Shown in pieces: positions 2,467 through 12,778 of a stretch of 64,000 nt of DNA. Every line of letters starts with the position of its first letter. Position 1 is the stretch's first letter. Position numbers and translations under genes: made by a program. Source of the stretch: Spirochaetaceae bacterium (lineage in GTDB: Bacteria; Spirochaetota; Spirochaetia; DSM-2461); contig OZ245056.1 in assembly GCA_965224705.1 (NCBI GenBank), positions 2,112,001 through 2,176,000 on the forward strand. Reading direction: 5' to 3'. A model generated the notes under the pieces. It was not told the origin of the DNA. It saw nothing but the letters and a program-made list of their open reading frames with translations, and ran no database searches.

Positions 2467-2657
2467 TTTGTTGTTTCTGCGGCTTTATCGTTAATCCACT
2501 GCTGCAGGGCTTCTTCGTAGATGATAATGCGTCTTCCCAATCTGACGTGCGGGAGCCCATTGCTCCGTACCTGACGGAGTGTATGCGATGTGGATATCCG
2601 CAGGAGCTCGGCAACCTCTTCAACGGTGAGTGCCCGTCCGGTATGCGAATAGTTCAT
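2463..2657 (-). CDS. Excisionase-like HTH_17 DNA-binding protein
   Basis: LTVEEVAELLRIS...LPHVRLGRRIII pattern. Confidence 0.8.
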   Translation of the reverse strand: MNYSHTGRALTVEEVAELLRISTSHTLRQVRSNGLPHVRLGRRIIIYEEALQQWINDKAAETTK

Positions 2658-4585
2658 ACCGTGCCTCCTGTGTCCACCGCCGTCCAGGTGATTCCATCAG
2701 CGCTGGTCAATATGGTGCCGGAGGCACCGGTTACCACCCACAGGCCATCGGCATAGCGCACATCATTGAGGTCCTTTCTTGTCCCGCTGTCCCGCTGAGT
2801 CCAGTCAATGCCGTCGGAGCTGGTCAGAATAATGCCGCAGTAACCTACGGCCACCCACAGGTTATTGCCGTGGTACGCAAGATGGATGTGCTTTTCCGTC
2901 CCCTCGGTGTCCTGCTCCGCCCAGGTGATGCCATCGGTACTGGTCAGGATGGCGCCGTTTGTGCCGGTTACCACCCACAGGCCATTGGCGTGATGCACTT
3001 CATAGAGGGTCTCTGCTGTCCCGGTATCTCTTTGTGTCCAGTCAATGCCATTGTAGCTAGTCAGGATGATGCCGTAGTAACCCGCGATCACCCAAAGATC
3101 ATCGGCGTGGTGCACATCAATGAGGTTCTCCTTCATCCCGATTGAGCTAATGACGGCGGGATTGGCCCGCTGCGTCCAGTCAATCCCATCGGTACTGGTC
3201 AGGAGGGTACCGGAGGAACCCACAACTACCCACAGGCCATCGGCATGATGCACTTCATAGAGGTACTCCGCCGTCCCGGTGTTTTGCTCCATCCAGCTGA
3301 TGCCATCGGTGCTGGTCAATATGGTACCGGAGGTACCCACAGCCACCCACAGCCCATTGGCGTAGCGAGCATCACGGAGGTACGCTGTCGTCCCACTGGT
3401 CCGTGCCGTCCAGCTGGTGCCATCGGTGCTGGTCAAAAGGGTGCCGTAGGAACCCACAACCACCCACAGGCCATTGCCGTAGCGAGCTTCATAGAGGTAC
3501 GCCTCCGTCCCGCTGTCTCGAACCGTCCAGGTGATTCCATCAGGGCTGGTCAGGAGGGTACCGGAGTCACCCGCAACCACCCACAGCCCATTGGCGTGGC
3601 GCACTTCATAGAGGTTCTGCGCCGTCCCGCTAACCCGCACCGTCCAGCTGATACCATCATTGCTGGTCAATATAGTGCCGGAGTAACCCACAATCACCCA
3701 CAGCCCATTGGCGTGGCGCGCATCCCAAAGGGTCACCGTTGTCCCGCTGGCCCGCGCCGTCCAGCTGGTGCCATCGGTGCTGGTCAGAATAATGCCGCAG
3801 TAACCTACGGACACCCACAGGTTATTGCCGTGGTACGCAAGATGGATGTGCTTTTCCGTCCCCTCGGTGTCCTGCTCCGCCCAGGTGATGCCATCGGTAC
3901 TGGTCAGGATGGCGCCGTTTGTGCCGGTTACCACCCACAGGCCATTGGCGTGATGCACTTCATAGAGGGTCTCTGCTGTCCCGGTATCTCTTTGTGTCCA
4001 GTCAATGCCATTGTAGCTAGTCAGGATGATGCCGTAGTAACCCGCGATCACCCAAAGATCATCGGCGTGGTGCACATCAATGAGGTTCTCCTTCATCCCG
4101 ATTGAGCTAATGACGGCGGGATTGGCCCGCTGCGTCCAGTCAATCCCATCGGTACTGGTCAGGAGGGTACCGGAGGAACCCACAACTACCCACAGGCCAT
4201 CGGCATGATGCACTTCATAGAGGTACTCCGCCGTCCCGGTGTTTTGCTCCATCCAGCTGATGCCATCGGTGCTGGTCAATATGGTGCCGACACTACCCAC
4301 AGTCACCCACAGGCCATTGGCGTAGCGCACATTAGTGAAGGCCGCCGTCGTTCCGCTGTACCGTGCCGTCCAGCTGATTCCATCAGGGCTGGTCAGGAGG
4401 GTACCGGAGTAACCCACAGCCACCCACAGGCCATCGGCATAATGCACATCATAGAGGTATTCCGTCGTTCCGCTGTTCCGCTGCATCCAGCTGATGCCAT
4501 CGGTGCTGGTCAATATGGTGCCGACACCACCCAAGACCACCCACAGCCCATTGCCGTAACGGGCATTACTGAGGTTCCTTAACAT
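2654..4585 (-). CDS. Beta-propeller repeat protein (~40-aa BNR/Asp-box-like repeats)
   Basis: About 15-16 repeats of ANGLWVxVGxxGTILTSxDGIxWTxRxSGT. No signal peptide. Overlaps both neighbours. Confidence 0.8.
   Translation of the reverse strand: MLRNLSNARYGNGLWVVLGGVGTILTSTDGISWMQRNSGTTEYLYDVHYADGLWVAVGYSGTLLTSPDGISWTARYSGTTAAFTNVRYANGLWVTVGSVGTILTSTDGISWMEQNTGTAEYLYEVHHADGLWVVVGSSGTLLTSTDGIDWTQRANPAVISSIGMKENLIDVHHADDLWVIAGYYGIILTSYNGIDWTQRDTGTAETLYEVHHANGLWVVTGTNGAILTSTDGITWAEQDTEGTEKHIHLAYHGNNLWVSVGYCGIILTSTDGTSWTARASGTTVTLWDARHANGLWVIVGYSGTILTSNDGISWTVRVSGTAQNLYEVRHANGLWVVAGDSGTLLTSPDGITWTVRDSGTEAYLYEARYGNGLWVVVGSYGTLLTSTDGTSWTARTSGTTAYLRDARYANGLWVAVGTSGTILTSTDGISWMEQNTGTAEYLYEVHHADGLWVVVGSSGTLLTSTDGIDWTQRANPAVISSIGMKENLIDVHHADDLWVIAGYYGIILTSYNGIDWTQRDTGTAETLYEVHHANGLWVVTGTNGAILTSTDGITWAEQDTEGTEKHIHLAYHGNNLWVAVGYCGIILTSSDGIDWTQRDSGTRKDLNDVRYADGLWVVTGASGTILTSADGITWTAVDTGGTV
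2821..4285. repeat. Near-exact ~505-bp internal duplication (2821-3325 vs 3781-4285, 960-bp offset) on a 120-bp repeat background
   Basis: Sequence lines repeat in register; one mismatch seen (2851 vs 3811). Confidence 0.9.
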
Positions 4586-4808
4586 CGCACTCCCCCTTTT
4601 CGTAAGCCTGTTCGAGTTCCGACCAATTTGCGAATCCGATATACAGGGCGATATCCCGGCGGATTCTCGGTGATTGGCGGACGCCTGCGATCACCCGTTC
4701 AACGGTCGTCTTTCCGTAATCGCTGTTGTTGGCGAAAGATGTAATCGATTCGCCTTTTCTTGCCATGTGCTGCGCGATGTATGCCCGTAGATCTTTCTTT
4801 TTTTCCAT
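4566..4808 (-). CDS. Cro/Ner-like small HTH regulator
   Basis: 80 aa with HTH-like SITSFANNSDYGKTTVERVIAG; AGGAG RBS; first gene after the RNA motif, divergent from the repressor. Confidence 0.65.
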   Translation of the reverse strand: MEKKKDLRAYIAQHMARKGESITSFANNSDYGKTTVERVIAGVRQSPRIRRDIALYIGFANWSELEQAYEKGECDVKEPQ

Positions 4809-4820
4809 GCATTTCTCCTC

Positions 4821-5133
4821 TTAGAAAATCCCGCCTGAGGCTCAATGCCTCAGACGGGGTGGAAATTCCATTTTTAAGATGGCCACCTTTAACTTCTTTT
4901 CGCATAACTACTTCTATACCCCCGCCATTTAGGGGGTTTCAGGGCTATTCCATTTTTTTCATACCTCGGTCGCGTACCCTGACTCTCGGGACCGCATTTA
5001 CCCTGCCTCCTACTCACAACCCCTTTCCGGTACCCATACTCGTCGTACGCCCGAGTATGGCCCGGCCATCGGCGCTTTCTATCAGGCAGGGGGTTAACAG
5101 ACACCTTTAAGGCTGCCTGTTTTTCTTGCTTCT
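4821..5133 (-). ncRNA. Putative structured RNA motif, copy A
   Basis: Multiple hairpins with compensatory changes versus copies B and C. G-U pairs favour the minus strand. Ends in hairpin + ATTTTCT. Confidence 0.6.
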
Positions 5134-5655
5134 CTAATCTCCTCCTTCTTTTCCTTTAATGAACGCAACCCAGATTGTCGTGCGTGTCGTCTTATGGCCG
5201 AACAAAGGGGATTCAGGGGTCAGTTTCAGGATCTGTGACACGGGAATTTCCTTTGTGGACCATTTTAGAATTAACACACCGTATGGTTTTAAGACGCGGA
5301 AACACTCGGCAAAGCCGCGTGTCAGAACAGTGCGCCAGTTATCGCCCAGAGTGCCGTACTTCCTGGCTGTCCAGCCGTTTATTCCATTTCGGCGGTGATA
5401 ATGCGGGGGGTCAAACACAACAAGCCGGAAGGTTTCATCTGTGAACGGAAGTTCTGTGAAATCGCCAGCGATATCCGGGTCGATTAACAGTTCGCGAAAG
5501 CCGTCTTTGCTGCTCCTGTCCTTGAGGGTGCATCGCTCTCTCCGCTTATCCAGGAAGATTGCCCTTTCATCTGTTTTGTTGAACCAGAACATTCTTGATC
5601 CGCAGCAGGTATCGAGTACTGGCGGAAGAACGCTGGGCAATCTGTCCTTTTTCAT
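5134..5655 (-). CDS. Small phage-type SAM-dependent (amino) DNA methyltransferase, copy 1
   Basis: VLDTCCGSRMFW SAM motif and FDPPH catalytic motif. Confidence 0.85.
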   Translation of the reverse strand: MKKDRLPSVLPPVLDTCCGSRMFWFNKTDERAIFLDKRRERCTLKDRSSKDGFRELLIDPDIAGDFTELPFTDETFRLVVFDPPHYHRRNGINGWTARKYGTLGDNWRTVLTRGFAECFRVLKPYGVLILKWSTKEIPVSQILKLTPESPLFGHKTTRTTIWVAFIKGKEGGD

Positions 5656-5717
5656 ACTTTCCCTATCCCTTTCATGCCGATATAATAGGCATAACCTCTA
5701 TTAGAGGGCGTGTAGAT

Positions 5718-5758
5718 AATGTAACAACACAAGCATTTATTGTCAATGAGTTTGTTGT
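5718..5758 (-). promoter_or_regulatory. Leftward sigma70-type promoter (TTGACA-17-TACATT) overlapped by two inverted operator-like sites, type 1
   Basis: tgtcaa at 5741-5746. ACAACACAAGCATT (5724-5737) and AATGAGTTTGTTGT (5745-5758) are imperfect inverted copies of each other. Confidence 0.6.
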
Positions 5759-5780
5759 TATTTTTTGGAGTTTATTGGCT

Positions 5781-6461
5781 TTGAATAGTTATTTATCTAG
5801 AATAAAAAGAATTATCGAAGAAAAAAAAATTACTGAAACTGCATTTGCCAAGGCTATCGGATCACATCAAGCAACAATTAATGCAATGTTTCAGCGTGGT
5901 ACAAACCCTCGTTCAGACTTATTAGAAGCGATATCAAAGACATTTACAGTTTCAGAGAAATGGCTCTTAACCGGCGAAGGCCCCATGTACCAGGACGAGC
6001 CGGGCTTCCCAAAGCCGCAGAGCATCCAGCATCTCAACGGGCATATAACGGACAACCCTGATGAGGAGGGGGCCTTTGTGGTGCCGATGCTGGAGCAGTC
6101 TGTTTCGGCAGGGAAGGGGAGCCATCTGGAGGATGATGATAACATCGCCGGATATGTTGCCCTGCCGCCGGCCATCACGGCTCATGGAGCTGCACTGGCG
6201 GCTCTCCCTGTTCGGGGTGATTCAATGTATCCGACAATTGATAATGGTGATATGGTGGTATGCGACGGGGGCGGTTATGATGGGGAAGGTATCTACGTCC
6301 TTCGCATGGATGGGGAAGCTCTCGTAAAGCGGCTGGCTAAGCGGCCCGGCGGTGTTATGGTTATCTCAGACAACGGCAGCTACCCGGATTTCGAGGTGTC
6401 CAGGGATACTCCGCTTGATGTTATTGGAAGGATTCGGGCGGTTGTGAAGGTGGTGAAGTGA
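5781..6461 (+). CDS. CI/LexA-like repressor (HTH + peptidase S24), allele 1
   Basis: Likely TTG start after GGAG. HTH ...WLLTGEG; VSAG cleavage site; GDSM Ser; VKR Lys. Confidence 0.9.
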   Translation: MNSYLSRIKRIIEEKKITETAFAKAIGSHQATINAMFQRGTNPRSDLLEAISKTFTVSEKWLLTGEGPMYQDEPGFPKPQSIQHLNGHITDNPDEEGAFVVPMLEQSVSAGKGSHLEDDDNIAGYVALPPAITAHGAALAALPVRGDSMYPTIDNGDMVVCDGGGYDGEGIYVLRMDGEALVKRLAKRPGGVMVISDNGSYPDFEVSRDTPLDVIGRIRAVVKVVK

Positions 6462-6574
6462 TATGAAATAGAAAAGATTCTGAGGTGATGGATGAGAGAA
6501 AATAGATTGAGCTATAGAATTCTATTGCTGCAGCTCATATAAACAATGGGCAGCTAAGCTGCGAGGAAGGAGAA

Positions 6575-6832
6575 ATGGAAAAAAGAAATTCGGGAGTAGA
6601 TCAGGAAATAGTAGAAGAAATCTCAAAATGCAAAACAAGGGAAGCACTACACTCTGTCTTTGAGGTACGCGGCCTTAATGATGTTAGGGAGAAAAGACTT
6701 TATCTCAAGGCCTGCACTGGTGAGATCGCAACATATTATGAAGATGGCTCTGATGATTTGACTGATGATCAACGATACCTTGATGATGAGTTTATGTTTC
6801 TAGACGGAACCTGGAGAGCACTTTCTCAATGA
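6575..6832 (+). CDS. Hypothetical 85-aa acidic protein, copy 1
   Basis: Strong AAGGAG RBS; ATGA overlap with the next gene. Confidence 0.75.
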   Translation: MEKRNSGVDQEIVEEISKCKTREALHSVFEVRGLNDVREKRLYLKACTGEIATYYEDGSDDLTDDQRYLDDEFMFLDGTWRALSQ

Positions 6833-7398
6833 GTTATGATAAGATACGTAAATCTATCAATGAAATTATAGCTGGTAAACATAGTGGCAAAGATCTTTCA
6901 GCGGATCAGATCAAGAACTTCATTAATGCATTTAAATCACTACTCGCTCCAGCATTAAAAGATTCAATATTTGCACACTATAAACATGCCATAGAATATC
7001 TCGTTCGGGAACATGAACAAACTCAAAGACCTATTTTGTATACAGAAGGACACATCCCATCTTCTAAGAGAGCTATTGCCAAATATTTGCGAGGCGGATA
7101 TGTAATAGCGACAAGTAAGGATTTAGATGTCAGAGAAAGACGTATTCAGCTTGGCCATGAACTGGGGCACATTCTTATAAATAATATCAACAACACCATC
7201 TACAAGACTGAAAATCTTTCTGGTTTTCCTGACAATAAATCAAGAGAATTCATGGCAAGTCTTATAAGTTTGTCAATGCATATAACCCAGAGTGACTTTT
7301 ACAAAGGAGAAACGTGTAAGAAATATCAGTATGATGAAACTCAACTATCAGAGCTTGCTGAGGAAATTATAGGTCTGGCCAGATCGGTTTTGAAGTGA
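6829..7398 (+). CDS. ImmA/IrrE-like HExxH metallopeptidase, copy 1
   Basis: RERRIQLGHELGH motif and downstream E (SREFMA). Confidence 0.75.
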   Translation: MSYDKIRKSINEIIAGKHSGKDLSADQIKNFINAFKSLLAPALKDSIFAHYKHAIEYLVREHEQTQRPILYTEGHIPSSKRAIAKYLRGGYVIATSKDLDVRERRIQLGHELGHILINNINNTIYKTENLSGFPDNKSREFMASLISLSMHITQSDFYKGETCKKYQYDETQLSELAEEIIGLARSVLK

Positions 7399-7436
7399 GT
7401 AAATCAGGATTCTCGTTTCTCTCTATTGCTTACTCC

Positions 7437-7750
7437 TTAGAAAATCCCGCCTGAGACTTAAATGGCTCAGACGGGGCGGAAATTTCATTTTGAGACGGCC
7501 ATCTCTAACTCTTTGTCCTCATAACTATTTTTATACCCCCGCCATTTAGGGGGTTTCAGGGCTATTCCATTTTTTTCATACCTCGGTCGCGTACCCTGAC
7601 TCTCGGGACCGCATTTACCCTGCCTCCTACTCACAACCCCTTTCCGGTACCCATACTCGTCGTACGCCCGAGTATGGCCCGGCCATCGGCGCTTTCTATC
7701 AGGCAGGGGGTTAACAGACACCTTTAAGGCTGCCTGTTTTTCTTGCTTCT
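7437..7750 (-). ncRNA. Putative structured RNA motif, copy B (C/A hybrid)
   Basis: 7437-7592 matches copy C; 7532-7750 matches copy A. Confidence 0.6.
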
Positions 7751-8272
7751 CTAATCTCCTCCTTCTTTTCCTTTAATGAACGCAACCCAGATTGTCGTGC
7801 GTGTCGTCTTATGGCCGAACAAAGGGGATTCAGGGGTCAGTTTCAGGATCTGTGACACGGGAATTTCCTTTGTGGACCATTTTAGAATTAACACACCGTA
7901 TGGTTTTAAGACGCGGAAACACTCGGCAAAGCCGCGTGTCAGAACAGTGCGCCAGTTATCGCCCAGAGTGCCGTACTTCCTGGCTGTCCAGCCGTTTATT
8001 CCATTTCGGCGGTGATAATGCGGGGGGTCAAACACAACAAGCCGGAAGGTTTCATCTGTGAACGGAAGTTCTGTGAAATCGCCAGCGATATCCGGGTCGA
8101 TTAACAGTTCGCGAAAGCCGTCTTTGCTGCTCCTGTCCTTGAGGGTGCATCGCTCTCTCCGCTTATCCAGGAAGATTGCCCTTTCATCTGTTTTGTTGAA
8201 CCAGAACATTCTTGATCCGCAGCAGGTATCGAGTACTGGCGGAAGAACGCTGGGCAATCTGTCCTTTTTCAT
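7751..8272 (-). CDS. Phage-type DNA methyltransferase, copy 2
   Basis: Protein identical to 5134-5655. Confidence 0.85.
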   Translation of the reverse strand: MKKDRLPSVLPPVLDTCCGSRMFWFNKTDERAIFLDKRRERCTLKDRSSKDGFRELLIDPDIAGDFTELPFTDETFRLVVFDPPHYHRRNGINGWTARKYGTLGDNWRTVLTRGFAECFRVLKPYGVLILKWSTKEIPVSQILKLTPESPLFGHKTTRTTIWVAFIKGKEGGD

Positions 8273-8334
8273 ACTTTCCCTATCCCTTTCATGCCGATAT
8301 AATAGGCATAACCTCTATTAGAGGGCGTGTAATC

Positions 8335-8375
8335 AATATAAAAGCATTTGCTTTAATTGTCAACGCTTTTGCTTT
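8335..8375 (-). promoter_or_regulatory. Leftward promoter (TTGACA-17-TATATT) with two palindromic operators, type 2
   Basis: AAAGCATTTGCTTT (8341-8354) and AACGCTTTTGCTTT (8362-8375) flank tgtcaa 8358-8363. Confidence 0.65.
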
Positions 8376-8397
8376 GTTTTTTTCGGAGATCAGTTCT

Positions 8398-9078
8398 TTG
8401 AACGAATATTTATTTAGACTAAAAAAAGTTATGGACGAAAAAAATTTTTCCGAAACAGCATTTGCTCGTGCTATTGGGTCAAGCCAAGGGTCTATCAACT
8501 CCATGTTTAGGCGAGATACAGTTCCCAAAGTTGACTTTTTGAAAGATATAGCGGGCAGATTTACGGTGAACCTGAACTGGCTTTTAACCGGCGAAGGCCC
8601 TATGTATCAGGACGAGCCGGGCTTCCCAAAGCCGCAGAGCATCCAGCATCTCAACGGGCATATAACGGACAACCCTGATGAGGAGGGGGCCTTTGTGGTG
8701 CCGATGCTGGAGCAGTCTGTTTCGGCAGGGAAGGGGAGCCATCTGGAGGATGATGATAACATCGCCGGATATGTTGCCCTGCCGCCGGCCATCACGGCTC
8801 ATGGAGCTGCACTGGCGGCTCTCCCTGTTCGGGGTGATTCAATGTATCCGACAATTGATAATGGTGATATGGTGGTATGCGACGGGGGCGGTTATGATGG
8901 GGAAGGTATCTACGTCCTTCGCATGGATGGGGAAGCTCTCGTAAAGCGGCTGGCTAAGCGGCCCGGCGGTGTTATGGTTATCTCAGACAACGGCAGCTAC
9001 CCGGATTTCGAGGTGTCCAGGGATACTCCGCTTGATGTTATTGGAAGGATTCGGGCGGTTGTGAAGGTGGTGAAGTGA
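8398..9078 (+). CDS. CI/LexA-like repressor (HTH + S24), allele 2
   Basis: C-terminal part identical to allele 1; HTH divergent (SSQGSINSMFRRDTVPKVD vs SHQATINAMFQRGTNPRSD). Confidence 0.9.
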   Translation: MNEYLFRLKKVMDEKNFSETAFARAIGSSQGSINSMFRRDTVPKVDFLKDIAGRFTVNLNWLLTGEGPMYQDEPGFPKPQSIQHLNGHITDNPDEEGAFVVPMLEQSVSAGKGSHLEDDDNIAGYVALPPAITAHGAALAALPVRGDSMYPTIDNGDMVVCDGGGYDGEGIYVLRMDGEALVKRLAKRPGGVMVISDNGSYPDFEVSRDTPLDVIGRIRAVVKVVK

Positions 9079-9191
9079 TATGAAATAGAAAAGATTCTGA
9101 GGTGATGGATGAGAGAAAATAGATTGAGCTATAGAATTCTATTGCTGCAGCTCATATAAACAATGGGCAGCTAAGCTGCGAGGAAGGAGAA

Positions 9192-9449
9192 ATGGAAAAA
9201 AGAAATTCGGGAGTAGATCAGGAAATAGTAGAAGAAATCTCAAAATGCAAAACAAGGGAAGCACTACACTCTGTCTTTGAGGTACGCGGCCTTAATGATG
9301 TTAGGGAGAAAAGACTTTATCTCAAGGCCTGCACTGGTGAGATCGCAACATATTATGAAGATGGCTCTGATGATTTGACTGATGATCAACGATACCTTGA
9401 TGATGAGTTTATGTTTCTAGACGGAACCTGGAGAGCACTTTCTCAATGA
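9192..9449 (+). CDS. Hypothetical 85-aa protein, copy 2
   Basis: Identical to 6575-6832. Confidence 0.75.
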   Translation: MEKRNSGVDQEIVEEISKCKTREALHSVFEVRGLNDVREKRLYLKACTGEIATYYEDGSDDLTDDQRYLDDEFMFLDGTWRALSQ

Positions 9450-10015
9450 GTTATGATAAGATACGTAAATCTATCAATGAAATTATAGCTGGTAAACATA
9501 GTGGCAAAGATCTTTCAGCGGATCAGATCAAGAACTTCATTAATGCATTTAAATCACTACTCGCTCCAGCATTAAAAGATTCAATATTTGCACACTATAA
9601 ACATGCCATAGAATATCTCGTTCGGGAACATGAACAAACTCAAAGACCTATTTTGTATACAGAAGGACACATCCCATCTTCTAAGAGAGCTATTGCCAAA
9701 TATTTGCGAGGCGGATATGTAATAGCGACAAGTAAGGATTTAGATGTCAGAGAAAGACGTATTCAGCTTGGCCATGAACTGGGGCACATTCTTATAAATA
9801 ATATCAACAACACCATCTACAAGACTGAAAATCTTTCTGGTTTTCCTGACAATAAATCAAGAGAATTCATGGCAAGTCTTATAAGTTTGTCAATGCATAT
9901 AACCCAGAGTGACTTTTACAAAGGAGAAACGTGTAAGAAATATCAGTATGATGAAACTCAACTATCAGAGCTTGCTGAGGAAATTATAGGTCTGGCCAGA
10001 TCGGTTTTGAAGTGA
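9446..10015 (+). CDS. ImmA/IrrE-like metallopeptidase, copy 2
   Basis: Identical to 6829-7398. Confidence 0.75.
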   Translation: MSYDKIRKSINEIIAGKHSGKDLSADQIKNFINAFKSLLAPALKDSIFAHYKHAIEYLVREHEQTQRPILYTEGHIPSSKRAIAKYLRGGYVIATSKDLDVRERRIQLGHELGHILINNINNTIYKTENLSGFPDNKSREFMASLISLSMHITQSDFYKGETCKKYQYDETQLSELAEEIIGLARSVLK

Positions 10016-10053
10016 GTAAATCAGGATTCTCGTTTCTCTCTATTGCTTACTCC

Positions 10054-10365
10054 TTAGAAAATCCCGCCTGAGACTTAAATGGCTCAGACGGGGCGGAAAT
10101 TTCATTTTGAGACGGCCATCTCTAACTCTTTGTCCTCATAACTATTTTTATACCCCCGCCATTTAGGGGGTTTCAGGGCTATTCCATTTTTTTCATACCT
10201 CGGTCGCGTGCCTTGACTCTCGGGACCGCATTTACACTGTCTCCTACTCACGCCTTTCCCGGCACCCATACCCGTCGCGCGTCCGTGTATGCTCCGGTCA
10301 TCGGGCTTTCTATCAGACAGGGGTTAACAGACAGCCTTAAAGGTGTCTGTTTTTCTTGCTTCTCC
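10054..10365 (-). ncRNA. Putative structured RNA motif, copy C (diverged)
   Basis: Same stem architecture as copy A, with covarying pairs and indels. Confidence 0.6.
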
Positions 10366-10484
10366 AACTTCCTCTATGCCGATATAATGGATATAGACTA
10401 TGCTGGAAGAACATGTAAGTAAGTTAACTCAATATCGGGGATTTGTCAACCCGGTTCTTTATTTTTTTTCGGGAATCAATCCCT

Positions 10485-10693
10485 TTGAGCGAATATGTAT
10501 TTAGATTAAAACAAATTATAAACGGAAAATCAGTGGGCAACATCCGCATGGGTAGGGAAGCTTTCATAAAGCGGCCTGACGAAGTCATAGTATTTTCGAT
10601 AATATCAGGTATCCGACCGACGAAGTATCCAAGGAAGTCCCTCTTGATGTCGTTGGCCGGGTCAGGGCGGTTGTGAAGGTGATGAAGGGGTAA
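10485..10693 (+). pseudogene. Internally deleted third repressor
   Basis: N-terminus LSEYVFRLKQII joined to S24 C-terminal remnants (RMGREAFIKR; after a frameshift, PLDVVGRVRAVVKVMK). Confidence 0.8.
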
Positions 10694-10769
10694 AAGTAAA
10701 AGTGATTAAGAATTTTGTTCATTCGATGAGCTATAATGAGTTGCATAAATCTATCAAAGAGGAAGAATT

Positions 10770-11213
10770 ATGAATACTATTGGTATCGGTAAAGTTGTAG
10801 TGGATAATACCAAACCTGGTTGGAATTATCCCCATTTTCATGTAATTCTTTTCAAGGAGAACGGAGATAACTCTTTTTACGCATATTGTATGGAACTCGG
10901 CATTGATGCTTTTTCGGAAGACTCTGCAAAAGCAGCCTTTTCTGAAATTGCGGCCAATGTATTAGATGACATCAACCAGTATGCCAATGAAGATTCTCTC
11001 TTCAAATGTCTCCTGGATATCGCCCGGAGTGATCATAATGATGTTTTCTGGAAAGAGTATCGGATTGCAGAAACAGAGCTTGCACAATATGGCGAAGACC
11101 TTGGAATTCATTTTGAAAGGAACGGCAGGGCAGCCGTGACTAATCAGGGTTTCCTAAGTATTAAACCAACTCCTCCGCCAATTGAGCAACAGCATGACGC
11201 TGCTCATCAGTGA
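10770..11213 (+). CDS. Hypothetical protein, HicB-like N-terminal fold
   Basis: VILFKENGDNSFYAYCMELGIDAFS pattern; own TATAAT and GAGG RBS. Confidence 0.5.
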   Translation: MNTIGIGKVVVDNTKPGWNYPHFHVILFKENGDNSFYAYCMELGIDAFSEDSAKAAFSEIAANVLDDINQYANEDSLFKCLLDIARSDHNDVFWKEYRIAETELAQYGEDLGIHFERNGRAAVTNQGFLSIKPTPPPIEQQHDAAHQ

Positions 11214-12393
11214 TCGCTGTATAATGCTCTGTCATATCCACTGACGAATGCCCTGTGAGTCTACGCAGCGCGTGATCAGCCACTCGGCCTCTCAGCATTG
11301 AATTATACCAATGCCGCCAGGCGTGAAAAGAAAGTCCTCGTTTTTTTATTTCATCAGGGGCTATGCCGACTGTTTCAAGCATGTGTTTATAGGTATTCGA
11401 GATACTGCGTTTCCCAATTGGCTTGTCAGGCGACGAACCCCAGAAGACGAAGTCTCCCCGCCATGGATTCACTGAGGCCAGCTGGTGTAAGGCTTCAACC
11501 GTTCTCGACGGAACGGGGACAATTCTGGGCTTGTTCCCCTTGGGAAGTTTCAGGCCCTCCCCATCCTGCCAGTTGCGCTTTACATCTATCCAGTCATCAT
11601 GAACACAATCAACTTTCAATCCTCGGCATTCGCCGAGTCTCATTCCTGTTGTCGCGGCCAGGAGGTTTATCGCCTTCTGCCGGGGATCGGTCCATTCCTG
11701 CCCAAAAAATGCACGGACTTCCTCCGGGCGAAGTATCACCCTCTCCCGTCTAGTTACGGGAAGCCGTTTAATTCTCTTGGCGGGATTAACCGATATCAGC
11801 CCCAGCCTCTCCGCCTCATTTAAGGGTACAGTCACTGCCTGCATAATCGCGTTGACACGTCTGTTGGAGATCCCCAGGGTTGAGAGCCAATGGATTATTT
11901 CTTCCATTAGCATAGCGTTTACTTTCCGCAGCCGCAGCGATTCCAACTTCCTAGAACCAAGCCAGTCTACCACTTTGTGAACAGCGCTCCTATTTGCTTT
12001 TATATAGACAGCCGACATCGGCCGTCCCATGGAATGCCTGTTTTTGAGATGGTGCCCATCATCTGACCAGAAGCCGATAAGGTAATTGGAGAAAAGAGGA
12101 TTTTCATTTCCGGTATTGATTCCAAAGCGCTTATACCATTGTGCTGCAATGGCATCGGCTCCCGCCTTGCTTGCCGGCGAGAGATGCTCCGCGTCACGGC
12201 CCAGCTCATTGCGCATTGACCCCGCAGATCGCCAGCAGGAATAATCCTGTTTGGCCGCATCCCAGAAAGCCGCGTAATAGTTTTTGAAGCCCTTCCGCCT
12301 GTACAGTATAAAAGCTTTACGCATCATGAGAACTATAAGCTTGATAGAAAAGCTAGTCAATAAACTAGTCAATATGAAAGCCATAGATTTCAT
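11161..12393 (-). CDS. int: Tyrosine recombinase / phage integrase (start may be 12327)
   Basis: TGMRLGE, FHAWRH, LTGH and TEHY catalytic motifs intact. Confidence 0.92.
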   Translation of the reverse strand: MKSMAFILTSLLTSFSIKLIVLMMRKAFILYRRKGFKNYYAAFWDAAKQDYSCWRSAGSMRNELGRDAEHLSPASKAGADAIAAQWYKRFGINTGNENPLFSNYLIGFWSDDGHHLKNRHSMGRPMSAVYIKANRSAVHKVVDWLGSRKLESLRLRKVNAMLMEEIIHWLSTLGISNRRVNAIMQAVTVPLNEAERLGLISVNPAKRIKRLPVTRRERVILRPEEVRAFFGQEWTDPRQKAINLLAATTGMRLGECRGLKVDCVHDDWIDVKRNWQDGEGLKLPKGNKPRIVPVPSRTVEALHQLASVNPWRGDFVFWGSSPDKPIGKRSISNTYKHMLETVGIAPDEIKKRGLSFHAWRHWYNSMLRGRVADHALRRLTGHSSVDMTEHYTAITDEQRHAVAQLAEELV

Positions 12394-12442
12394 TGTGGTG
12401 TGTAGTTGTGATTAATTTCTTATTCCACAATGGGTTAAGGTA

Positions 12443-12526
12443 TGCCTGGAAGAGGACTCGAACCTCCACGAGCTTGCGCTCACTAGTCCCTGAAACTAGC
12501 GTGTCTACCAATTTCACCATCCAGGC
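12443..12526 (-). tRNA. tRNA-Leu(CAG)
   Basis: GCCTGGA acceptor stem, CTAGT-TTCAGGG-ACTAG anticodon arm, long variable arm, GTTCGAG T-loop. Confidence 0.95.
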
Positions 12527-12778
12527 AGGATGTGTATAGGCGAGAGTACCTTCTAGGTGGATGTATGTCAATTACTGCACAGGGTTTTCATGCAATCTTC
12601 TTTGTGATGGATTTCTGATCCCTCCCTGCTTATTCGTACTTTTAGGATTTCTCCATCCTTTTCCTCCCCCACCCACACATTCTGACAGGAGCCTGTAAAA
12701 TAACGGATACTCAATTTCTACCGGATCAGATGTCAGCTTTCAGATTCCGGTGCATTTTCTTGTGACCGCTATTCTAAG

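Follow-up and report, generated by a model that had tools for sequence, protein, structure and literature searches.

A spirochaete prophage with a tandemly repeated immunity region and two divergent repressor alleles

Immunity modules in described phages and in the present locus

In lambdoid phages such as lambda, 434, P22, and 21, and in hybrids of the imm434 type, the helix-turn-helix (HTH) head of the repressor and the operators set the immunity type, and the immunity region is an exchangeable module. Our subject is the repressor region of a prophage in a Spirochaetaceae bacterium, contained in a window of 64,000 nucleotides (assembly GCA_965224705.1, contig OZ245056.1, positions 2,112,001 to 2,176,000), where two alleles of what appears to be such a module occur. 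That a head and its operators move jointly is classical; it is unusual to find both alleles adjacent in one prophage, on DNA that is otherwise letter-identical and with one and the same cleavage and dimerization domain attached to each. We judge it moderately probable that this prophage holds its immunity unit twice in tandem, with anciently diverged alleles that were probably joined by unequal recombination, and that it encodes two repressors of different predicted specificity.

The likeness to the lambdoid phages lies in a two-domain repressor, with a head that aligns with those of 434 (2OR1/1PER) and P22 C2 (1ADR/2R1J) and a C-terminal part with the fold of LexA and lambda CI. The similarity is weak, however, and the locus differs further in that no Cro-type gene lies across the operators, the sites number two and not three, the module measures 276 bp, and the two alleles stand in tandem.

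The closest natural parallel that we have found is CTXphi of Vibrio cholerae. Excerpts of the work on this phage describe RstR repressors that each repress only their own ig-2 promoter, and CTX, pre-CTX, and RS1 prophages of different rstR types lying in tandem (PMC11509585). As in the spirochaete prophage, elements that are otherwise similar carry divergent alleles of a cassette made up of the repressor gene and the operator region next to it. The CTXphi arrays, however, consist of whole filamentous prophages placed in series through site-specific integration, and RstR lacks an S24 domain, whereas here the duplication affects just a 2.6-kb cassette of a tailed prophage, presumably through homologous recombination, and both repressors have an identical C-terminal domain. 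Excerpts on the P2 family describe immunity classes in which the C repressor and the C-cox spacer vary together (PMC3448106), but C is of another family, binds direct repeats, and lacks an S24 domain. A duplicated repressor-operator pair with heterodimers was modelled by Poelwijk et al. (PMC1464816, as excerpted). Systems of this type resemble ours in having two recognition heads, a common dimerization surface, and an operator for each head, and heterodimers are expected in them; they are, however, simulated or engineered and proceed by stepwise mutation, whereas here a natural pair would have come about through the import of an allele, and the prophage holds no chimeric operator. Excerpts from papers on 933W and phage L speak of mosaicism at the level of domains and of nothing more specific. 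Our literature search turned up no report of tandem heteroimmune cassettes in a tailed prophage, although many journals lay outside that search and absence is unproven.

The repeated unit and its divergent block

A sliding comparison, followed by comparison base by base, resolves the repressor region into a tandem direct repeat with an offset of 2,617 bp. At this offset, positions 4915-5714 (800 bp) and 5991-7592 (1,602 bp) are 100% identical to their partners, and every one of the 96 mismatches among 2,678 aligned bases lies inside 5715-5990 versus 8332-8607, a block of 276 bp with 65.2% identity between the copies and zero indels. When 96 mismatches were placed at random over the aligned bases, a span of 276 bp or less arose in 0 of 200,000 placements. 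An earlier reading of the letters (the original prediction) had limited the divergence to these two intervals with no net indel, and had named divergence spread over the whole unit as the result that would count against it; exact alignment bears out the former and shows the opposite of the latter, the flanks being letter-identical. Its placing of the HTH within the block also holds, but the end it assigned, at WLLTGEG, has to be refined: the block continues through the WLLTGEGPMY codons with synonymous differences only, the last three of them at 5964, 5982, and 5988.

Each unit comprises, in order, an X element, a minus-strand DNA methyltransferase gene, the block, the repressor gene, an 85-amino-acid open reading frame (ORF), and a gene for an ImmA/IrrE-like protease. 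In each copy the block contains a promoter-like site, two operator-like sites whose register is common to both copies, and repressor residues 1-70, with no gene besides the repressor head, and its differences amount to 29 in amino acids plus about 28 in noncoding DNA. A divergent repressor part and adjacent operator region within near-identical flanks is the form that a heteroimmune allele cassette takes. The comparison supports the proposal that predicted promoter, predicted operators, and the entire HTH head vary jointly inside otherwise identical DNA, and with it the view that the block behaves as a single specificity cassette.

The two alleles are old. Over the 70 codons inside the block, synonymous differences number 26.1 at 45.3 sites (proportion, pS, 0.58; rate, dS, 1.09, saturated) and non-synonymous differences 41.9 at 164.7 sites (dN 0.31; dN/dS 0.28), and third codon positions account for 34 of the 68 coding differences, whereas the flanks show 0 changes in 2,402 bases. 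The pairwise alignment and dN/dS ratio that the original prediction had put forward as a check therefore gave 65.2% identity, a ratio of 0.28, and saturation at synonymous sites. Its picture of a co-evolving module does not extend to co-evolution in place, which the same numbers contradict, since saturated synonymous divergence (dS about 1.1) next to unchanged flanks points to old alleles that were imported by recombination. Base composition also breaks inside the gene: the block is AT-rich in both copies (29-40% guanine plus cytosine, GC; GC at third codon positions, GC3, 0.29 and 0.40), and the remainder of the repressor gene has a GC of 57% and a GC3 of 0.61. So sharp a break marks the repressor as a chimera of parts with different histories.

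Both edges of the block fall in conserved sequence. The left linker is the ATGCCGATATAAT motif (...TGTA), invariant in the two units and in a third, decayed cassette, where it lies just left of the variable block (5656-5714, 8273-8331, and 10375-10416). The right linker is the stretch coding for WLLTGEG, the most conserved head motif of the family; W61 is invariant in 40 homologues. The nearest relative, P0003, has 32 of 60 residues identical in the head and 100 of 121 behind it, and the same right-hand boundary shows in a mollusc metagenome run, where a 427-bp contig matches from 5961 rightwards only. The block is, on this evidence, an old allele that entered through recombination, with the conserved linkers as the sites of crossover.

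The repressors begin at TTG, with GGAG 9-10 bases upstream (starts at 5781 and 8398), and belong to the PHROG 4 "transcriptional repressor" family. Each has an HTH head (PF01381, E value 4e-8 in A and 1.6e-6 in B; PF07022 in both) and an S24 domain (PF00717, E 4e-22). The AlphaFold model of repressor A has a predicted local distance difference test (pLDDT) score of 84.7, with residues 1-70 at 83-95; its helices span 3-14, 19-25, 30-39, 45-55, and 59-64 and are followed by a disordered linker and, from residue 99, by a beta domain. Over its whole length, up to and including the W-L-L-x-G end, the head can be aligned with the 434 repressor and P22 C2 N-terminal domains at weak E values (0.008-0.36), and this alignment places helix 3 at residues 30-39. 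The claimed difference in the predicted recognition helix is there (QATINAMFQR in A, QGSINSMFRR in B), yet the differences extend beyond helix 3 and are scattered over the entire head: 29 of the first 60 residues differ, and 41 of the 70 residues in the block are identical. From residue 61 to 226 the two proteins agree at 166 of 166 positions, as had been claimed for the S24 domains. The modelled C-terminal domain resembles that of LexA (template-modelling, TM, score 0.81-0.82; root-mean-square deviation 2.1-2.5 A), and across LexA, UmuD', and the lambda CI C-terminal domain the TM score to the target is 0.72-0.82, with matches in sequence too. A110, G111, and S148 do not vary among 40 homologues, and K183 is conserved in at least 90% of them, so the Ala-Gly site and the Ser/Lys dyad are both present and the self-cleavage apparatus looks intact.

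Minus-strand TTGACA is invariant between the copies (5746..5741 and 8363..8358) and forms the -35 element of a predicted leftward promoter (P_L) in each. P_L(B) and P_L(A) rank first and fourth among the 17 sigma-70-like sites in the 6.4-kb region 4500-10900, and P_L(A) is the only such predicted promoter contiguous with the lytic genes. The predicted P_L is divergent from the repressor gene and lies 35 bp upstream of its start, and repeated sites overlap its -35 and spacer, the layout of a lambdoid switch. Each copy has two related 14-bp sites, one within the spacer and one overlapping the -35, in the same register in A (ACAACAcaagCATT and its inverted partner AATGagttTGTTGT) and B (AAAGCATTTGCTTT and AACGCTTTTGCTTT); a tripartite operator of the lambdoid kind was not found, the cassettes having two sites each. 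The motif ACAACA-N23-TGTTGT of A occurs once in the 3.0-Mb genome, the second B site matches the first at 12 of 14 positions, and within the prophage the A and B motifs are found only at their own promoters. No hybrid A/B operator is present in the prophage, in scans for outer half-site combinations with one mismatch or fewer. The 8-bp inverted arms of A were reached in 39 of 2,000 shuffles. The original prediction had operators differing in parallel at the same positions around an invariant TTGACA; the common register is seen, the statistical support for the sites is modest, and "operator" for that reason remains a predicted label. The ATGCCGATATAAT motif holds a plus-strand TATAAT without a good -35, which may be the repressor's own promoter.

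Origin of the two alleles

The unit is bounded by the X repeats, of which the middle one, X2, is a hybrid. Its crossover lies within 7532-7592, and a 61-bp core is common to all three repeats. A left part of one kind joined to a right part of the other reads as the footprint of a single unequal crossover, in which the right X of one genome met the left X of another; as far as these sequences tell, the unit duplication is the product of unequal crossover between X repeats, and the two alleles most likely met when two heteroimmune relatives underwent unequal homologous recombination at their flanking X repeats. On the minus strand, X is predicted to fold strongly (-121.4 kcal/mol, z -4.9). At the left end of X1 there is a minus-strand terminator-like hairpin (4858..4830, -25.7 kcal/mol) directly upstream of the first early gene, and X2 has one of -18.8 kcal/mol, followed by AUUUUCU, downstream of P_L(B) and methyltransferase copy 2. 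X matches no Rfam family at gathering or E 1 thresholds, its ORFs match no PHROG, and nhmmer found no match to it in 1.2 Mb of related loci. The right hairpin is arm-swapped between X1 and X3, which keeps the pairing. X also holds a small basic minus-strand ORF (71, 78, and 55 amino acids) in which 3 of 4 substitutions are synonymous, yet which is broken by indels in X3. The element may serve as a leader or an antitermination RNA, or may encode a small protein.

To the right of X3, beside the integrase gene, lies the remnant of cassette C. It has the same layout of TTGACA, T-run, GGAG, and TTG with a different operator-type sequence, and no methyltransferase gene. Its tblastn-detected repressor pseudogene consists of the N-terminal 14 amino acids fused to about residues 167-196, a frameshift, and then residues 195-226; about residues 15-166 are missing, and the tail is 66% identical to A and B. 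The presence of a third, decayed cassette suggests repeated rounds of stacking, with older cassettes retained for long enough to degenerate.

Several observations weigh against the preferred reading of a tandem of two old alleles, each with its own operators. Perfect 2.3-kb direct repeats are unstable, and the state may be short-lived. Among 160 related loci there is no tandem repetition of the repressor region (four have unrelated internal protein repeats), the phage, viral, and family genome sets yielded no close relative, and the arrangement is known from this genome alone. A strong terminator-like hairpin stands between P_L(A) and the early genes. The operator assignments are predictions from sequence alone: the 6-bp palindrome arms of B were reached in 568 of 2,000 shuffles, which is not significant by itself, and the A sites are not individually palindromic, which makes their register uncertain. 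The promoter scan and the alignment of the three cassettes identified no promoter for the repressor, just the conserved TATAAT at 5682-5687 without a good -35. Finally, the run used for the depth analysis given below is probably the source sample of the genome, which means that the depth test is not independent of the assembly.

Whether the tandem exists at all can be judged from read depth. In run X3 (run labels are separate from those of the repeats), which holds 0.96 of sampled words, the unitigs of the unique left flank, block A, block B, and the unique right flank have depths of 7.0, 7.9, 7.8, and 6.7, and four unitigs of the shared unit have depths of 15.1-15.6. Two single-unit strains, or a 50:50 mix of them, would put the shared unit at flank depth; it is at double that depth, with the blocks at flank depth, which fits a real tandem and not a strain mix. 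The depths also balance across the three X variants (7 + 15.3 entering versus 15.1 + 6.7 leaving), and the genome is one closed contig of 3,005,944 bp. We therefore regard as very improbable the notion that the tandem is an assembly artefact, made by falsely joining a strain variant with unit A alone to one with unit B alone, even though the sample is impure (runs X3 and X1 also contain a relative of the immunity unit, of roughly 90% identity, at a depth of about 15) and the unitigs are too short to link block A to block B, so that the order of the units rests on the assembly. Equally real sequence could have come from copies that, once duplicated, diverged where they stood as strong positive selection favoured a new specificity, and the restriction of the differences to the specificity-determining part is what that history predicts. 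Saturated pS, a dN/dS of 0.28, the share of third-position differences, unchanged flanks, and a block composition unlike the rest of the gene in both copies leave this idea scarcely credible. An old tandem, with flanks kept identical by gene conversion and the block kept as an island by selection for two specificities, would fit the very sharp boundaries at conserved linkers, and 65% identity in the block would stop conversion tracts; but perfect identity over 2.4 kb needs very frequent conversion, the hybrid X2 with its clean left/right switch is more simply explained by one crossover, and no relatives were found that would date the duplication. We consider such a history improbable.

A more serious contender grants the structure and denies its function: the tandem would be a transient and selectively neutral outcome of recombination between heteroimmune phages that shared a host by co-infection or co-residence, with cassette B lacking a selected role and soon to be lost. 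Zero substitutions in 2,402 bp of flank imply a very recent event, the arrangement occurs in this genome only, and the phage encodes its own recombination proteins. On the other hand, the decayed third cassette suggests repeated stacking with older cassettes persisting, blocks A and B are at full single-copy depth (7.9 and 7.8; flanks, 7), which gives no hint that a large sub-population has collapsed, and, as weak evidence, the unitigs of run X5 break where the tandem predicts. This run, a second sample of the same organism at depth 2, covers the shared parts only and is too thin to show either block; its unitigs stop exactly at 5714, 5991, and 7592, as would follow from twofold coverage of the shared parts relative to the blocks. 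On balance we think a mere by-product unlikely, if well worth keeping in mind. At the other extreme, the X repeats could be portable homology arms that stack A, B, and the decayed C beside the integrase, with Sak4/exonuclease recombination switching lytic control, so that superinfection immunity would undergo phase variation and the switches would be coupled by A/B heterodimers. This seems to us a doubtful elaboration. The reading that we prefer remains the joining of two anciently diverged alleles by unequal recombination.

Relatives were sought that might date the swap or represent single-allele parents. No match was found by blastn among phage records. One representative genome per species yielded one locus, at 28% identity; the best non-self match by protein among 61 related genomes was 32% identical; by DNA, 38 family genomes gave a homologue of the 85-amino-acid ORF and protease in G003 only; profiles run against viral and metagenome contigs found nothing above 41% identity over the full length. 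When viral contigs were scanned for exact patterns, neither the X core nor the right boundary gave a match (0 for each). The nearest proteins are P0003 and P0005, at 75% and 70% identity. The roughly 90%-identical relative mentioned above is seen in run X3 and in mollusc metagenome run X1 at 6219-6827 and 10643-10800; its joints (6413->10643 and 10723->6586) suggest an S24 tail that continues into sequence of the cassette C type.

The prophage and what its two repressors may do

The coordinates of the locus are collected in Table 1. By gene content and ends, the element is an intact 40.6-kb prophage of siphovirus type beside tRNA-Leu(CAG): a 57-bp repeat of the tRNA-Leu 3' end (12442-12498) recurs 40.6 kb leftwards and marks the prophage ends (attachment sites, att). 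Its minus-strand genes include those for exonuclease, Sak4, SSB, primase, resolvase, late activator, terminase, portal, capsid, tape measure, and tail proteins, and every lytic gene is on the minus strand, left of cassette A. After the 80-amino-acid HTH gene come a 643-amino-acid repeat protein, exonuclease, Sak4, and SSB. The repeat protein (2654-4585, minus strand) has about 11 copies of a 39-amino-acid (117-bp) repeat, GLWV..G..GTILTS.DGI.WT, with faint family matches only.

Table 1. Positions of features in the repressor region and its surroundings
Feature	Position	Strand	Basis or remark
80-amino-acid HTH gene	4566-4808	-	First lytic-side gene outside the repeat; PHROG 925, E 4e-5
X1, left copy of X repeat	4820-5133		Structured noncoding repeat of ~315 bp bounding the unit; three-copy alignment
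DNA methyltransferase gene, copy 1, 173 amino acids	5134-5655	-	PHROG 954, E 8e-64; first gene downstream of predicted P_L
Block A	5715-5990	none	Predicted P_L, operator-like sites, repressor residues 1-70; GC 29-36%
Predicted promoter P_L(A)	5746..5718	-	TTGACA-17-TACATT, TG upstream; 10/12 consensus match
Operator-like sites A	5724-5737 (ACAACAcaagCATT), 5745-5758 (AATGagttTGTTGT)		Jointly a 35-bp imperfect palindrome (5724-5758); sequence
Repressor A, 226 amino acids	5781-6461	+	TTG start; HTH_3 head, linker with Ala110-Gly111, S24 domain
85-amino-acid ORF, copies 1/2	6575-6832 / 9192-9449	+	Unknown function
ImmA/IrrE-like metalloprotease gene, copies 1/2	6829-7398 / 9446-10015	+	HELGH; PF06114; PHROG 87 metallo-protease
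X2, hybrid repeat	7436-7750		Left as X3 (7436-7592 = 10053-10209), right as X1 (from 7532 = 4915)
DNA methyltransferase gene, copy 2	7751-8272	-	Translation identical to copy 1
Block B, alternative allele of cassette	8332-8607	none	Alignment; own unitig 8302-8637
Predicted promoter P_L(B)	8363..8335	-	TTGACA-17-TATATT; 11/12, top promoter-like site of region
Operator-like sites B	8341-8354 (AAAGCATTTGCTTT), 8362-8375 (AACGCTTTTGCTTT)		21 bp centre to centre; sequence
Repressor B, 226 amino acids	8398-9078	+	TTG start; 31/60 head residues as in A, 166/166 from residue 61
X3, right copy of X repeat	10053-10374		Right part 85-90% identical to X1/X2
Cassette C remnant	10417-10687	+	Third promoter/operator-type region and repressor pseudogene; three-region alignment, tblastn
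Tyrosine integrase gene	11161-12393	-	Adjoins tRNA; PF00589, E 2e-18; PHROG 1
tRNA-Leu(CAG)	12442-12527	-	3' 57 bp repeated

Downstream of the repressor the unit recalls the ImmR/ImmA systems (ICEBs1 and phi105-type), in which an M78 protease gene with an HEXXH motif lies in the operon of the repressor. Here too an HEXXH protein is encoded beside the repressor, and its PF06114 match (24.2 bits, E 3e-5) is just above the cutoff of 22. ImmR-type repressors, however, have no S24 domain, whereas the present repressors have a complete one, and an 85-amino-acid ORF, with no Pfam or PHROG match, stands between the two genes. An ImmA/IrrE-like protease in one operon with an S24-bearing repressor is an odd combination. 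A pair of the 85-amino-acid ORF and protease genes, at about 65% DNA identity, occurs in a genome of the same genus (G003, L183:146-993) next to a GMP-synthase-like gene; no repressor gene is visible upstream there.

If the locus works as its layout suggests, the lysogen would make two repressors of different predicted DNA specificity that have one cleavage and dimerization domain in common, and each would occupy the two sites at its own P_L, over the -35 and spacer, and shut it. With the lytic genes all situated to the left of unit 1, P_L(A) would be the one promoter of the two able to drive them; transcripts from P_L(B) would cross methyltransferase copy 2 and run into the terminator-like hairpin of X2. 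The phage itself would then be of immunity type A, with cassette B a spare that gives the lysogen immunity to relatives of type B. Given the Ala-Gly site and the Ser/Lys S24 domain common to both repressors, an SOS signal would inactivate them at once. The first leftward gene is a DNA methyltransferase gene identical in both units, and the nearest HTH gene lies outside the repeat; the lack of a Cro-type gene that co-varies with the block may be why 276 bp suffices to change the immunity type.

LexA and lambda CI dimerize through their C-terminal S24-type domains. For this reason, and given the match in fold, heterodimers of A and B through the shared C-terminal domain are plausible; we suspect that they would form at random and lower both homodimer pools. 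The perfect repeats, for their part, should recombine and collapse the tandem, by way of RecA or of the phage's Sak4, exonuclease, and SSB. If the crossover fell in the 800 bp to the left of the block, the lytic operon would come under operator B and head B, yielding a phage of type B; if it fell in the 1,602 bp to the right, the product would be a phage of type A. The array could thereby switch the immunity type of the phage.

The locus is a natural form of the duplicated repressor-operator pair, an arrangement that has been studied mainly by simulation and engineering. With the specificity determinants narrowed to 276 bp, it offers a clean natural experiment on repressor specificity, and it bears on how few changes re-aim an HTH repressor, on heterodimer interference in vivo, and on the ways in which phages hold and swap spare immunities. 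Should the spare cassette work, a single prophage would guard its host against two immunity groups and could emerge as either type, which would bear on phage competition in natural communities.

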